DNA from: Promethearchaeota archaeon
GTDB taxonomy: Archaea > Asgardarchaeota > Lokiarchaeia > Sigyniarchaeales > SOKP01
Assembly: GCA_048940925.1 (NCBI GenBank)
Contig: JBHLOC010000001.1
Span: 128,001-192,000 of the forward strand
Direction of reading: 5' to 3'
DNA: 64,000 nucleotides
Position 1 is the first letter of the stretch. Every line of letters begins with the position of its first letter. Below are positions 2,567-58,467 of the stretch, piece by piece. The notes under the pieces were generated by a model. The model was not told the origin of the DNA and did not search any database. It worked only from the letters and a program-made list of their open reading frames with translations. Both the position numbers and the translations under genes were made by a program.

Positions 2567-3229
2567 TTAATATTTTAGATTTGTTTGTTGGTCCTTATGA
2601 AAATTTAAATACAGAATTATGTTTTCTATTCTTTTCACTTTTGGAATGGATAATCTCCTTATATTTTTTAAGGTTGTGAATAATTCTAAAAATTCTGTAT
2701 TTTCATTTAAAAAATTATAAGTCGAAATTATATAAAAATCATTATCCAAAATGGCGAAGAAGTCCTTATCTAAAGAAATGATATCTAGTTTTTTATTGTT
2801 TTTTTTAAAATTATCTAAAAGAAGATAATACGTTCCCATATTATTGGAAAAAAAAGAATTCATAAACATGATATCATCAGAATATTTTTTTATATATATT
2901 CCAGGAGTTGACTTTTCCCATCTTTCATATTCTGGAGAGTTGATCTGTTTAGCTTTATTTAAGGCCTTACCTAAAAGTAATGCTTGAGATCTTTCATCAG
3001 GACCTAAATATCTTAATTCCTTTCCTTTAAATTTAATTATAATATGTTCTCTTTCAAAATATAAATATAGATTATTATCTTTTCTGATAGAATAAGATAA
3101 ACAGAAGGCTTCTCTAATACATGAACATAATTCGTAAATTAAAATAGGAATAGTTCCTTTATCAATTTCCTTTTTACTAAAGTAGGTAATCTTTTTTATT
3201 AGAAGGAGAAAATTAACCAATTTAATCAA
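2567..3229 (-). CDS. Divergent TrmY-like SPOUT protein (tRNA pseudouridine-54 methyltransferase-like)
   Basis: CIREAFCLSYSIRKD and LRYLGPDERS resemble TrmY/DUF358 motifs; C-terminal half divergent. Confidence 0.55.
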   Translation of the reverse strand: MIKLVNFLLLIKKITYFSKKEIDKGTIPILIYELCSCIREAFCLSYSIRKDNNLYLYFEREHIIIKFKGKELRYLGPDERSQALLLGKALNKAKQINSPEYERWEKSTPGIYIKKYSDDIMFMNSFFSNNMGTYYLLLDNFKKNNKKLDIISLDKDFFAILDNDFYIISTYNFLNENTEFLELFTTLKNIRRLSIPKVKRIENIILYLNFHKDQQTNLKY

Positions 3230-3251
3230 ATAATAGTTTCTAATTATTATT

Positions 3252-53947: not shown

Positions 53948-55613
53948 TCAATGATTTAGAGTTTTAGAGACATATACACCATCTATTTTATATCCCATTT
54001 CATAGAACCAATCTCTTGCTCCAATACCACTTATTACTACTAGTTTTTTTGCTCCAAATTCTTCAAATGAGGTTTTTTCAGCATTTTCCATTAATAATTT
54101 TCCATATCCTCTATGTTGTATTTGAATAAGTCGCTTGGGTTTCAAGTCTTTTGGAACCATTTCTCCAACTACCTTGATTTCCCTTACGATTAATGTTTTT
54201 CCATCATTTATTTCAGGTCTGTGGGCAAATTCAGAAGGCTTTCTTAAGCGTAAATATCCAATTAAATAATTTTCGATTTTATTCTCATAGGATAAGAATA
54301 TTTCTTTTCCCTGAGAAGCATCATAATCAAAACGATATAGTTTTATTTTATCAAAGGATTTCTCATCAATAAGTTCCTCTTTCTTACTAATCCCATATTC
54401 TCTACATCTAATACATTTGCAAGTTTCATCCCAACTTTTTAGTCTCTCTTGGACTAACTGTCTTAAATTGCTATTTTTACAACCTGCTTTGATTAATGTC
54501 GCAGGTATATCTCTCATTATTCTTTGAATTCTCACATAGGATGGAAGGTTTTTTTTAGCCATTGCAATTAATTCAATTAAGTCTTCATCCGAGTATGGTA
54601 AGTAATTTCCATTTTTCCACCAATTATGCAATTCAGTACCATCTATCACGAGAGTAGGATAAATTTTTAACATATCAGGTCGATAATCTGGATTAGAAAA
54701 TAAGCTATCAAATAATTTTAAATCTTTTTGAATAGTTGAACCGGGTAAATTTGGCATTACATGTGCATTGATTTTTAATCCTGCATCTTTAGCAATCCTT
54801 ATCGATTCAATGCTATCAGCAGTTGTATGCCCTCTTTTCACTAGATCATAGATTTCATTATAGACTGTTTGAATACCAATTTCGACTCGCGTTGTTCCAA
54901 AATTTAACATATTATCTACATGTGTCTCTTTACAATAATCTGGTCTTGTCTCAACGGTAATACCTATAACCCTTCTTTTAGATTTTTCTGCTAATAGCTT
55001 AGCTTCTTCCAAACTGCCTGTTTTTTGTTTTATTATTCCCTCTAATGCCCCTTTAACGAAATGTGTTTGATAATCTGGATCAGTTGATAAGAAAGTCCCA
55101 CCCATTATAATAAGTTCAATCTTTTATGGTGGCAAACAATTAAGCGTATACCATGTCCACTTTATGCCCAATGGCTTCTAAATCTTTTATTCGAGATTGA
55201 ACTTGCTTATAAGGATCATAATTGTTATGGATTGATCTCATCGCCGCTGGTTCTCTTCCTGTATATGATTGGGCAACTTTTTCCCCTGGTTGGGAGTTTA
55301 CTCCAGGACAGTATATACATGTTCCGGGACAAGGAAGAGGTTTAGTCATAATTGCTATTACTGAAACTCCTGAAATTGTTCTTGTTGTTCTTCTCTTCAA
55401 AAATTTATTGATAATCTCTTTTTCTTCATTTGTTGCATGGTGTATAATACTGGCATTTTTTATAACTCGATTATAATTATACTTTTTTCCAATTTGTCCT
55501 TTAAGGTTTGTTATTTTTCTGCGAGAAGTTTTAGGATTTTCTAAAAGATACTCAATTATTTCTCTTGCTATTTTCTTTACTATACTTGAGTTTATATTAT
55601 CTGATTGTTCCAT
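53948..55613 (-). CDS. elp3: tRNA U34 acetyltransferase Elp3, two exons (55155..55613 + 53948..55123), 544 aa after splicing
   Basis: Radical-SAM CPGTCIYC and QSYTGREP in exon 1; MGGTF, ETRPD, KIYPT, QHRGYG, ISGIGAR in exon 2; junction restores GHKVD|KIELIIMGGTF. Confidence 0.93.
55124..55154 (-). other. 31-nt BHB-type intron in elp3 mRNA
   Basis: GUGG/CCAU central helix, bulges AC^A and AA^A, inner stem UGGUAUACG/UGUUUGCCA; insert carries a stop and a frameshift. Confidence 0.85.
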
Positions 55614-56395
55614 TCTTAAATTAATTAATTTGATAGAAAGATTTAAATCTTCATGAAAATTATACTTTTCGATTTATCTTTTAATACAAATCTCAAGCAA
55701 TATGATTTCTATTTCAAAATAAAGGAAGAAAAAATAAGATACACTAAAAGATGGTTTCTATATCAGAAAAAGTACAAGTCAAAAAATTTATCTCCTTAAC
55801 ATCTATTATCAAATTTATCAAGCTTTTCAAAATATTCTAAACTCTAATCTAAACCTTTCATTTGCAATAAATTCTTTAAAGATGTATAATTGTTAATCCC
55901 AAATTTTCCTACAATTCTTTTTATTTTTATAATTAAACCTTGTTTATGCCATACTTGATATTTTTGATGCAAATCTGACCCAAATTCTGAATTAAGGATA
56001 TCAATAAAAAACTCCCGAATAGAAGGATCTCTAAATGTGCTTTATCCCTCAGGTTTATCTAAATATTTGAAGATTTCGTTAACATCTCTATCTATAAGAA
56101 AATATTATGCTAACTTGTAGGTAGTTATCTCAAAATATCCTAAAGTTTCTGAAATTAGTCTATTAAGTGTCATATGAGTTTTGATATCATACTTTTTAAA
56201 AAATTTTTGTAAGAAATTTTTTTGTTCTCTTGTATTTTGTTCAAATCATTAAGAATTGTAGATTCTAAATATTAGATTTAAATTTAAAGTTTCGAAAAAA
56301 TATTTTTTTGAAATTGTTTCATAAATATTTAAATATGGAATGTTACATATAGATTATAGTATGAAAAAATTTAACTTTAAGGTGATATATACAAA

Positions 56396-57922
56396 TTGTC
56401 GGGAGGTTTGAAAAACATTATCGCTACAGTTACAACTACAATTGAAGAAAAAGTTAATTTCAGTCAATTGGCAAGTAAATATTCCGAACTATTATATAAT
56501 CCCGAGAAGTTTCCTGGATTGATCATGCAGATAGAAAAACCGAAAGCAACGGTTGTGTTATTTTCCACTGGAAAAATGGTTATAACAGGACTTCAGCAAA
56601 CCTCAGATGTTGAAAAAGTAATGGAAAAAGTAATTGAGTTTTTTAGAGCTGAGGGAATAGAATTAAAAAATCTGGAAATTTCAATGGAAAGAGTAAAGCC
56701 AAAAAGAATAAAAATATGCCTATTAGGGGAAAAAGGTGTTGGAAAATCTACTTTAATGGACACAGTATTAAAATCTTCAGAGAAAGTTACAACTAAAAAA
56801 CAAAAAGATATTATCGGAGTAGATTTTTTTAATGTAAAAGTTAGAGATATTGATGGTAAGGACGTTATTCTACAATTATGGAATATAATTGACGAAGAAC
56901 GTTTTAAACAAATTCAGCAAAATTATTATGTGGGCGCTGATGGAGGGATTATATTCTATGATATCACAAATAAATCCAGTTTTGAAAATCTTGATAATTA
57001 TGTTTCAGCATTTAGAAAATCAAAAAGAAATCGAAACATCCCTATTATTTTGGTTGGAAATAAATTCGATCTTCGAGAAAATAGAGAAGTCTCGCAAACT
57101 GAAGCTTCCAAGGTAGTGGTTACTCGTAAAATGGTAGGTTATCTTGAATTTTCTGCGCTAGATAGTCAAAATGTAATTAAATTATTTGAATCAATTTGCC
57201 GAATTATAATACGGAAAAAAAACTTAATCTCTATTTCTGAAGCTTTGGAAAATGATCTTAATTTAAGAATTTTGATGAATTTACAAATATTTAAAGAATT
57301 AAGTTTGGTAGAGATCTCGAAAAGAGTTGTTAAAAGTAAAGCCACTATTTCTCGTCATACTCGAAATTTAATTAAGCTAGGTCTAATTGAATCTCATGTT
57401 AAAGAGATAGAACCGCAAACAGGTACGATTAAGCGAAAATATTATACATTAAGTAAAGATTTGAGCTATCATATAGAAAAAAGAGATTTTAATTTTTCTC
57501 AATTGAAATCAAGAATAAAATGGAAGATATTTTCAGAGTTTTATCTAAAAAAACTATATAATTTCAAAACAGTTAATCTCTTATCAAAAAGATTAAATAA
57601 TATGCTAGAAGATTTTAATAATCATATTTTTGGTGGTTTTCCGGCACTCATAAAGCAATATGGAAAATATATTGAAAATTTACCTATAAATTTTCAATTT
57701 TTAAATGAAAAGCAAAATCAAAAAGTTCAGTCTCTATTACTAAAATTTGATTCAAAATTAAGAGATATATTAGCAGATGATGATGGTTCAGAGAAGTCTT
57801 ATTTATTTTTGAATATGACGCTTCCAACAGTGGATTTAATAAATCTCTTTGAAAAACCTGAACTGTTTAACCATATAATTCTAAATCGAGAGATTAAAAA
57901 AGAGAAAAAAGGTTTTGAATAA
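56396..57922 (+). CDS. Fusion protein: single TBP-like repeat + Rab-like small GTPase + ArsR-type winged HTH + C-terminal domain
   Basis: NIIAT...YNPEKFPGLI...LFSTGKMVITG; GEKGVGKS, IGVDF, NKFD, EFSA; LSLVEISKRVVKSKATISRHTRNLIKLGLI. Confidence 0.85.
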   Translation: MSGGLKNIIATVTTTIEEKVNFSQLASKYSELLYNPEKFPGLIMQIEKPKATVVLFSTGKMVITGLQQTSDVEKVMEKVIEFFRAEGIELKNLEISMERVKPKRIKICLLGEKGVGKSTLMDTVLKSSEKVTTKKQKDIIGVDFFNVKVRDIDGKDVILQLWNIIDEERFKQIQQNYYVGADGGIIFYDITNKSSFENLDNYVSAFRKSKRNRNIPIILVGNKFDLRENREVSQTEASKVVVTRKMVGYLEFSALDSQNVIKLFESICRIIIRKKNLISISEALENDLNLRILMNLQIFKELSLVEISKRVVKSKATISRHTRNLIKLGLIESHVKEIEPQTGTIKRKYYTLSKDLSYHIEKRDFNFSQLKSRIKWKIFSEFYLKKLYNFKTVNLLSKRLNNMLEDFNNHIFGGFPALIKQYGKYIENLPINFQFLNEKQNQKVQSLLLKFDSKLRDILADDDGSEKSYLFLNMTLPTVDLINLFEKPELFNHIILNREIKKEKKGFE

Positions 57923-58122
57923 TAATTATAAAGTAATTTTCTTTCTTGCAAAATCTCTTTTATATTTGCCAAATTTCTCTTTACTCAATTATAACTATTT
58001 TACCCCGAAAAGGTTCTTTAAAAATTACCAAAATTTTGAATTTTTTTGTGAAATTTTAAAAGTGCATTTAATAATGAGTTGGGGTGATCTCCAGTGTTGC
58101 ATAATATTATAAAAAACTCAAG

Positions 58123-58467
58123 ATGATTTCAGACTATATAAATAATTATTTAGAAGCGACAGAGAGTCATCTCTTGACATCTGTAGCTATGGGAGAAATA
58201 CCAATGATAGAGATAATTAATGTACTTATGGAAGCACTCGAGAAGAACTTGATACACTATCAGTTTATATCTGAGGACCAATACAAGAAGGTTAAGGCAT
58301 TAAGCCTTGAGTCTCATTCTAAATTAGCTGAGATTCTAAAAAAGGATGAAAATCCTGTGAAGCCTTATTTATTCTTTGATATCTTGCTTAAAATGCTAGG
58401 TGTTGTTAAGATTGGTAATAAAACAAGCGAAGCTATATTAGGGCTTCGACAGACAATAAAGACTTAA
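58123..58467 (+). pseudogene. Stand-alone or remnant copy of the C-terminal domain of the upstream fusion protein
   Basis: IHYQFISEDQYKKV...SKLAEIL..DE...KPYLF aligns with INFQFLNEKQNQKV...SKLRDIL..DD...KSYLF. Confidence 0.55.

Follow-up and report, generated by a model that had tools for sequence, protein, structure and literature searches.

A conserved fusion of a single TBP repeat, a degenerate Rab-like domain and a Phr-type regulator in a small group of Asgard archaea

Positions 128,001 to 192,000 of contig JBHLOC010000001.1, from assembly GCA_048940925.1 of a Promethearchaeota archaeon (Asgardarchaeota; Lokiarchaeia; Sigyniarchaeales; SOKP01), make up the 64,000-nucleotide stretch analyzed here, which we refer to as the window. 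Within it, a gene at 56396-57922 on the plus strand encodes a 508-residue protein that joins one TATA-binding protein (TBP) repeat, a Rab-like G domain and a regulator of the Phr type, the latter consisting of a winged helix-turn-helix (wHTH) and a helical domain. We find that this conserved fusion is real in a small group of Asgard (Promethearchaeota) archaea and that it is a probable gene-specific transcription factor of undescribed design. The fuller account, in which it is a lineage-specific, selected one-component transcription regulator that was built stepwise and acts by the mechanism proposed below, stands for us evenly in the balance.

An earlier note, made from the letters of the window, had described one uninterrupted frame with a single TBP repeat, a Rab/Ras-like G domain and an ArsR-like helix-turn-helix. 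In the list of open reading frames (ORFs) of the window, the frame of 508 codons plus stop is indeed open throughout and starts with TTG, which aligns with the ATG of the orthologues when loci are compared. The three-domain make-up is borne out by Pfam, with matches to TBP (PF00352) at residues 6-82 (E 1.6e-18), to Ras (PF00071) at residues 106-271 (E 1.4e-35) and to HTH_5 (ArsR) at residues 290-333 (E 2.7e-5; 24.4 bits, cut-off 22), and NCBIfam gives a consistent picture. Assemblies from NCBI, JGI, ENA and Logan yielded 10 further full-length relatives of the same architecture, 505-510 residues long and 52-84% identical to the window protein. The search for this architecture in other Asgard genomes, which the note had proposed, located the full fusion in four species genomes besides its own among 400 of the phylum, with two of the copies cut by contig ends. 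At every locus examined, the fusion follows gatD-gatE-elp3 on the minus strand and precedes pyrK-pyrD, likewise on the minus strand, and then nop5-fibrillarin. Pairwise ratios of non-synonymous to synonymous substitution rates (dN/dS) were 0.34-0.40 for the TBP part, 0.20-0.30 for the G domain, 0.12-0.16 for the wHTH and 0.13-0.21 for the C-terminal domain. Being well below 1 in each case, these values place all four parts under purifying selection.

The TBP half (aa 6-88; 56411..56659, + strand) is a bona fide repeat of this fold, recognized by Pfam, by TBPs in the PDB and by alignment with the TBPs of the genome itself. Its Pfam match reaches 66.8 bits against a cut-off of 22.9, which removes the concern, raised in the note, that a significant TBP profile match might be lacking. 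The match forms one stretch only. In a sequence search of the PDB, the N-terminus was matched by the TBP of S. acidocaldarius (1mp9, E 1.9e-29), archaeal TBPs being nearest, and both repeats of 1mp9 map onto the same single repeat of the fusion, in agreement with the count of one given before. The full-length TBP models of NCBIfam score 43-71 bits against cut-offs of 181-347, far below threshold because only half a TBP is present instead of the two repeats that these models describe. Alignment with the two TBPs of the same genome gives the fused repeat 49% and 42% identity to their N repeats and 29% to their C repeats, values that point to descent from the N-terminal repeat of TBP as encoded in this genome. 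The sole repeat of the fusion is N-type, and a C-type repeat is absent from the protein. The stirrup that binds TFB/TFIIB is a feature of the C-terminal TBP repeat, so the fusion has no counterpart of it. Residues N7, F39, F56, K60, V62 and T64 are identical to those of the N repeat of the genome's TBP1; by established TBP-DNA structures, N7 (strand 1) and T64 (strand 5) stand at the positions of the minor-groove Asn and Thr, and F39 and F56 at those of the two intercalating Phe.

The fusion point lies in the linker that follows (aa 89-104; 56660..56707, + strand), which is homologous to the inter-repeat linker of TBP and to the start of strand S1' of repeat 2. In the alignment with the N repeat of TBP1, KNLEISMERV of the fusion faces ANPEITIQNI. 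Since the similarity extends through the linker to the first residues of S1', the G domain has taken the place of repeat 2 from almost exactly where that repeat begins. When residues 1-100 were used in a word-based search, fusion orthologues alone were retrieved, and no other architecture containing this TBP half. Two ordinary two-repeat TBP genes are present elsewhere in the genome, on contigs C8 and C58, and the fusion is therefore not the basal factor.

The G domain (aa 105-272; 56708..57211, + strand) has as its nearest solved structures Ypt31/Rab11 (E ~1e-27) and a Thorarchaeota Rab (7ezb, E 2e-26). In the AlphaFold2 (AF2) model it superimposes on a Rab with a Z score of 21.8 and a root-mean-square deviation of 1.8 Å over 156 residues (VIA fold search). 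When the 508-residue model was used for a wide VIA fold search, the matches listed were all to the G domain, with nothing on the TBP or C-terminal parts. The motifs read as described in the note: G1 (GEKGVGKS, 111-118), G4 (NKFD, 222-225) and G5 (SAL, 253-255) are intact and are kept in all fused members, and G3/switch II at residues 162-170 (56879..56905, + strand) is WNIIDEERF in place of WDTAGQERF. The caveat that the domain may be a poor nucleotide binder or a pseudo-GTPase was apt, all the more as a second loss had been missed. In the alignment with Ypt31, SKSTIGVEF stands opposite QKDIIGVDF, such that I139 (codon 56810..56812, + strand) occupies the position of the invariant switch I threonine (T35 of Ras). 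This position holds I, K or L in 11/11 fused proteins. Likewise, all 11, together with the nearest TBP-less relatives P0013 and P0015, share the G3 pattern W-[ND]-I-I-D-[EDN]-E-[RK]-[FY]. The more distant TBP-less paralogues P0016-P0019 retain both the switch I Thr and the Gly of DxxG. The Ypt31 alignment also puts a Lys at the position of Ras G12.

In the universal switch mechanism, known as the loaded spring, the switch I Thr and the DxxG Gly sense the gamma-phosphate. That Thr, Gly and the catalytic Gln are lost together speaks against canonical hydrolysis as well as a GTP/GDP switch of the classical kind, and the residue pattern makes a canonical switch improbable in the fused proteins. 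Having a G fold that has lost catalytic and switch residues, the domain is in this respect like a pseudoGTPase. Nucleotide is probably still bound, as would be expected from the intact G1, G4 and G5 motifs, and the two acidic residues at the gamma-phosphate site might favour GDP.

The C-terminal half begins with an ArsR-type wHTH (aa 287-352; 57254..57451, + strand; Pfam HTH_5 and MarR_2), the most constrained part of the protein. In the alignment of relatives, its recognition-helix block K-A-T-x-S-R-x-T is invariant. Residues 353-508 (57452..57919, + strand) form a conserved helical domain and not a tail. A profile of 58 sequences covering residues 276-508 was compared with the PDB and matched 2p4w (Phr, PF1790, the heat-shock regulator of Pyrococcus furiosus; E 4.3e-11) and 1uly (PH1932; E 1.5e-10) across the wHTH and the helices, with profile positions 9-184 of 224 aligned to 2p4w residues 3-182. 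An exhaustive HMMER search with the same residues returned 76 representative proteins, of which about 50 are stand-alone proteins of ~215-250 residues that align end to end. These stand-alone Asgard homologues match solely helix-turn-helix families of the ArsR/MarR type in Pfam (up to 44 bits), and the named ones are 'ArsR family' regulators of Heimdall-, Hod- or Promethearchaeota. Modelled as a 233-residue fragment with an alignment of homologues, the C-terminal half folds confidently (AF2 predicted local distance difference test, pLDDT, 89.8), with helices at 98-136, 141-152, 163-185 and 203-232 of the fragment. The top Foldseek matches of this fragment were 4g6q, 2p4w and 1uly, at TM-scores that are low because the long helices are packed differently in the monomer model. 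Judged by profile and fold matches, residues 276-508 represent a complete Phr/PH1932-like regulator with wHTH and helical domain. Phr is a dimer through its helical domain, and PDB entry 2p4w contains two chains. Phr acts as a negative regulator and recognizes a palindrome (PMC10746257).

The order in which these parts came together can be read from a maximum-likelihood tree of the portion shared by fused and TBP-less proteins, from the G domain to the C-terminus. With midpoint rooting, all TBP-fused proteins fall on one branch (support 100/98) nested among TBP-less forms, a topology that indicates a single gain of TBP onto an older GTPase-wHTH gene. The metagenomic relative P0014 (572 aa) has a second complete G domain at its N-terminus, in the place of the TBP half; the N-terminus of this regulator family thus accretes different modules. 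In another genome, the TBP-less P0018 (430 aa) fills exactly the same syntenic slot as the fusion.

A relic of such a gene is found directly downstream of the fusion. The segment 58108..58467 (+ strand) corresponds to the 3' third of a P0018-type TBP-less GTPase-wHTH gene, with a surviving ORF of 114 codons at 58123-58467. In tblastn, the 118 residues encoded by 58108-58461 aligned with residues 305-422 of P0018/P0019 at 58-62% identity (E 3e-44), against only 30% for the C-terminus of the fusion itself. Upstream of the relic, nothing of that gene survives. The relic is missing from three orthologous loci, and a 145-aa ORF downstream in the P0010 locus, considered as a counterpart, proved unrelated to it. 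From its sequence, the relic looks like the remnant of a gene that was displaced by the TBP fusion. On the simplest reading, a P0018-type gene once resident at this locus would have been largely replaced by the TBP-fused one, and the patchy spread within the genus would fit recombination between related species. The remaining ORF might still be expressed as a protein composed of the helical domain only.

Putative signals for expression precede the fusion gene. A Shine-Dalgarno-like AGGTGAT (56380..56386, + strand) lies 9 nt 5' of the TTG and reads GGTGAT or AATGAT at orthologous loci. Further upstream, a conserved block at 56317..56351 (+ strand) contains a perfect, TATA-like 12-nt palindrome, ATATTTAAATAT (56325-56336, + strand), and after it an imperfect palindrome, TGGAATGTTACA (56336-56347, + strand), a candidate operator between the TATA-like palindrome and the expected start site. 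The block is near-invariant at orthologous loci encoding proteins of 57-82% identity, and the remainder of the spacer is not alignable. Its roles as promoter and operator are putative. We regard it as a candidate autoregulatory site that is not specific to the TBP-fused form. On the far side of this spacer, elp3 (radical SAM / acetyltransferase) is split here into two ORFs on the minus strand, 53948-55105 and 55140-55613, and is a single gene of 542-544 aa in related loci. The spacer between elp3 and the fusion (55614-56395) measures ~780 bp, compared to ~260 bp at orthologous loci. The extra ~500 bp contain no ORF reaching 60 aa and show no resemblance to the macro-domain gene that locus L022 has at that place.

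The composition, ancestry, conservation and residue status of the protein are shown by these data; how it might dimerise, bind DNA and nucleotide, and in which direction it would regulate, we infer. The core would be the ArsR-family regulator of Phr/PH1932 type, with its wHTH and long-helix domain, which by analogy to Phr would form a dimer and recognize a promoter through a palindromic operator. A Rab-derived G domain would have been the first addition, at the N-terminus of this core. As the two 'loaded-spring' anchors and the catalytic Gln are gone, a cycling GTP/GDP switch is a less likely role for this domain than that of a nucleotide module, constitutive or sensing occupancy, or of a docking surface. 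The second addition, made once and in a sub-clade, would have been one N-terminal TBP repeat whose DNA-contact face was left intact. The operator would be read by the two wHTHs of the dimer, and one TBP half, or two halves forming a symmetric saddle, would contact an adjacent TATA element. Because the C-terminal TBP repeat with its TFB-binding stirrup is absent, such a complex would occupy the TATA box without recruiting TFB. Occupancy of this kind makes promoter-specific repression or competition with TBP the likeliest output, probably including autoregulation at the upstream palindromic TATA/operator block.

Several observations weigh against this mechanism. The spread is narrow and patchy, with 5 carriers among the 134 species genomes of one family (3 of 53 species in the genus of the window and 2 of 6 in a second genus). 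The full-length AF2 model of the fusion is of moderate quality (pLDDT 71; predicted template modelling score, pTM, 0.60). The TBP half shows the weakest constraint of the four parts, and in the sub-clade P0010-P0012 its DNA face drifts, N7 being changed to E or Q, F56 to Y and T64 to A, with F39 kept. AF2 places an S1'-like linker strand at residues 90-99, which might cap the very sheet edge that a dimer of half-saddles needs. As for the upstream block, a similar one is also found 5' of the TBP-less positional homologue P0018, and the block is therefore no particular argument for the TBP half. A search of the own genome returned no second good copy of the 24-nt promoter block, the nearest match having 3 mismatches (contig C45, position 11093), and no regulon is defined; moreover, AT-rich palindromes are easily met in a genome with a GC content of 28%. 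The most specific version of the mechanism, in which two copies held together by their Phr domains pair their TBP halves into a homodimeric TATA saddle, dependent on guanine-nucleotide occupancy of the degenerate Rab domain, is in our view doubtful. A TBP saddle formed by dimerising, as the note had suggested, does gain some indirect support from the Phr/PH1932-type C-terminal half with its long helices and from the DNA-face residues kept in the TBP half.

The least constrained and drifting TBP half, and the S1'-like strand with a directly attached G domain that may take the position of repeat 2, would also suit a different role, in which the TBP half is a protein-protein or structural module instead of a DNA binder and the wHTH alone provides DNA specificity. 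The TBP half might, for example, sequester a TBP partner by pairing or mimicry, pack on the G domain as a replacement for repeat 2, or serve as a decoy. TBP-like folds are known in roles other than TATA binding, as in RNase HIII, DNA glycosylases and the appendages of adaptin and COPG (PMC3597702). A further hint comes from contig C8 (locus L001), on which a gene (378-905, + strand) for a 175-aa Rab-like GTPase, its switch motifs intact, lies directly 5' of the canonical TBP gene (1144-1806, + strand); an opposite-strand gene (2603-3241, - strand), whose product ends in a wHTH-like segment, is located beyond them. The GTPase-TBP pair is kept in 9/12 sampled relatives from three genera, suggestive of protein contacts between GTPases and TBP. 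However, the fused G domain is not specifically related to this neighbour of TBP, which ranks 15th of 64 when the small GTPases of the genome are compared with it (34% identity), and we accordingly rejected an origin of the fusion from the gene pair. In addition, most members of the fused family still have the residues by which the parent repeat contacts DNA, both intercalating Phe among them, and these would be needless in a pure protein-interaction role. We rate a TBP half that serves as a protein-protein or structural module as rather unlikely.

The proposed regulator with a non-cycling G domain has also to be set against one gated by a working small-GTPase cycle, in which guanine-nucleotide exchange factors and GTPase-activating proteins would set GTP and GDP states that switch DNA binding on and off. 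The Rab-like fold and the intact G1, G4 and G5 motifs would be compatible with such a cycle, and so would a genome in which a tblastn search with the G domain detected at least 64 small-GTPase-like loci (64 in 4.8 Mb). The GTPase-wHTH fusion may even have been a true switch ancestrally, given that Thr and Gly are both kept in P0016-P0019. The fused proteins themselves present another picture: in all 11, the switch I Thr is replaced by I, K or L, D-x-x-G by N/D-I-I-D and the catalytic Gln by E, D or N, and the Lys at the Ras G12 position adds to this. Conservation of the new motif itself suggests that function was changed and not retained. A working cycle is therefore quite improbable, and the phrase of the earlier note, 'directly gated by a eukaryote-like small GTPase', does not stand as worded. 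Finally, an artefact or decaying gene, that is, a chimeric assembly of a TBP fragment with a GTPase-regulator gene, as the note had considered, or a pseudogene, might be suspected in an assembly of 90 contigs with 8.4% estimated contamination and at a locus which the truncated paralogue relic shows to have been rearranged, but this reading is effectively refuted. At least 10 independent assemblies, and 4 other species genomes, contain a protein of this architecture and length, the gene is always placed between elp3 and pyrK, and the frame has no internal stops, dN/dS well below 1 in each domain and conserved promoter and Shine-Dalgarno sequences.

The fusion is not the only regulator of this genome that contains half a TBP. 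A genome-wide Pfam scan detected, on contig C7 (locus L005, 907-2235, + strand), a 442-aa protein in which a TBP repeat is flanked on either side by Lrp/AsnC. This repeat, too, is N-type and is 41% identical to the N repeat of TBP1. Full-length matches to the Lrp-TBP-Lrp protein at 62-83% identity are present in at least 28 other species genomes of the 134 in the family, as opposed to 4 for the GTPase fusion, and in many other genomes of the family there are tandem Lrp-Lrp frames of ~310-350 aa from which the TBP middle part is missing. By these domain assignments, two regulator families with no relation to each other have each taken up a TBP half in this lineage. The two proteins are alike in having one N-type TBP repeat within a transcription regulator; the Lrp-TBP-Lrp protein, however, has a tandem Lrp/AsnC host, contains no G domain and is far more widespread.

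Each part of the fusion resembles a known system and departs from it. Phr and PH1932 (1uly/2cwe) are similar to residues 276-508 over the wHTH and the long helices, but they are stand-alone proteins of ~200 aa, whereas the fusion carries ~275 extra N-terminal residues, and identity is only ~19%. Residues 6-88 correspond to a genuine repeat of TBP (PF00352), of which TBP has two and the fusion one. A single TBP domain is likewise found in the monopartite TBP-domain proteins of archaea, namely halobacterial TbpA and the Pyrococcus group (Brindefalk et al. 2013, PMC3597702); these are stand-alone proteins and mostly very divergent from TBP, whereas the repeat of the fusion is close to TBP and joined to a G domain and a wHTH. 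Neither a GTPase nor Lrp is mentioned in the text of that paper. Rab GTPases such as Rab11/Ypt31 and 7ezb provide the best sequence and fold matches of residues 105-272 and share G1, G4 and G5. Unlike them, the fusion has no switch I Thr, DxxG Gly, catalytic Gln or C-terminal prenylation tail, and its G domain is embedded in a DNA-binding protein. In the pseudoGTPases AAGAB psGD (PMC12490416) and p190RhoGAP (PMC5593906), a G fold with degenerate catalytic and switch motifs is likewise found and is used there as a scaffold. Class i examples of pseudoGTPases have lost nucleotide binding, in contrast to the fusion, for which the retained G1, G4 and G5 motifs predict that binding is preserved. We found no description of a TBP/small-GTPase fusion in the literature searched, a body that lacks most subscription journals.

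Asgard 'domain shuffling' has been noted in the literature (10.1101/2020.10.19.343400). The stepwise accretion from a regulator to a GTPase-regulator and on to a TBP-GTPase-regulator, together with the loss of switch residues and the allele-like replacement at the locus, gives a concrete example of it. The narrow distribution, and a function that is proposed from sequence, speak against a wide significance. If the mechanism holds, a single TBP repeat, recently derived from TBP, would be at work outside the basal factor, and the old idea that TBP originated as a homodimer of single repeats would become directly testable with a native protein. In the same case, a Ras-superfamily domain would be wired straight into a regulator that binds DNA, and this in the archaeal lineage closest to eukaryotes, with its hugely expanded repertoire of small GTPases. 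Should the nucleotide-dependent half-saddle also prove true, the protein could be called a gene-specific 'split TBP', and the homodimeric ancestor long postulated for TBP would have a living model in it. Taken together with the Lrp-TBP-Lrp protein, it would then show TBP halves to be in use in this Asgard family as portable modules for targeting promoters.

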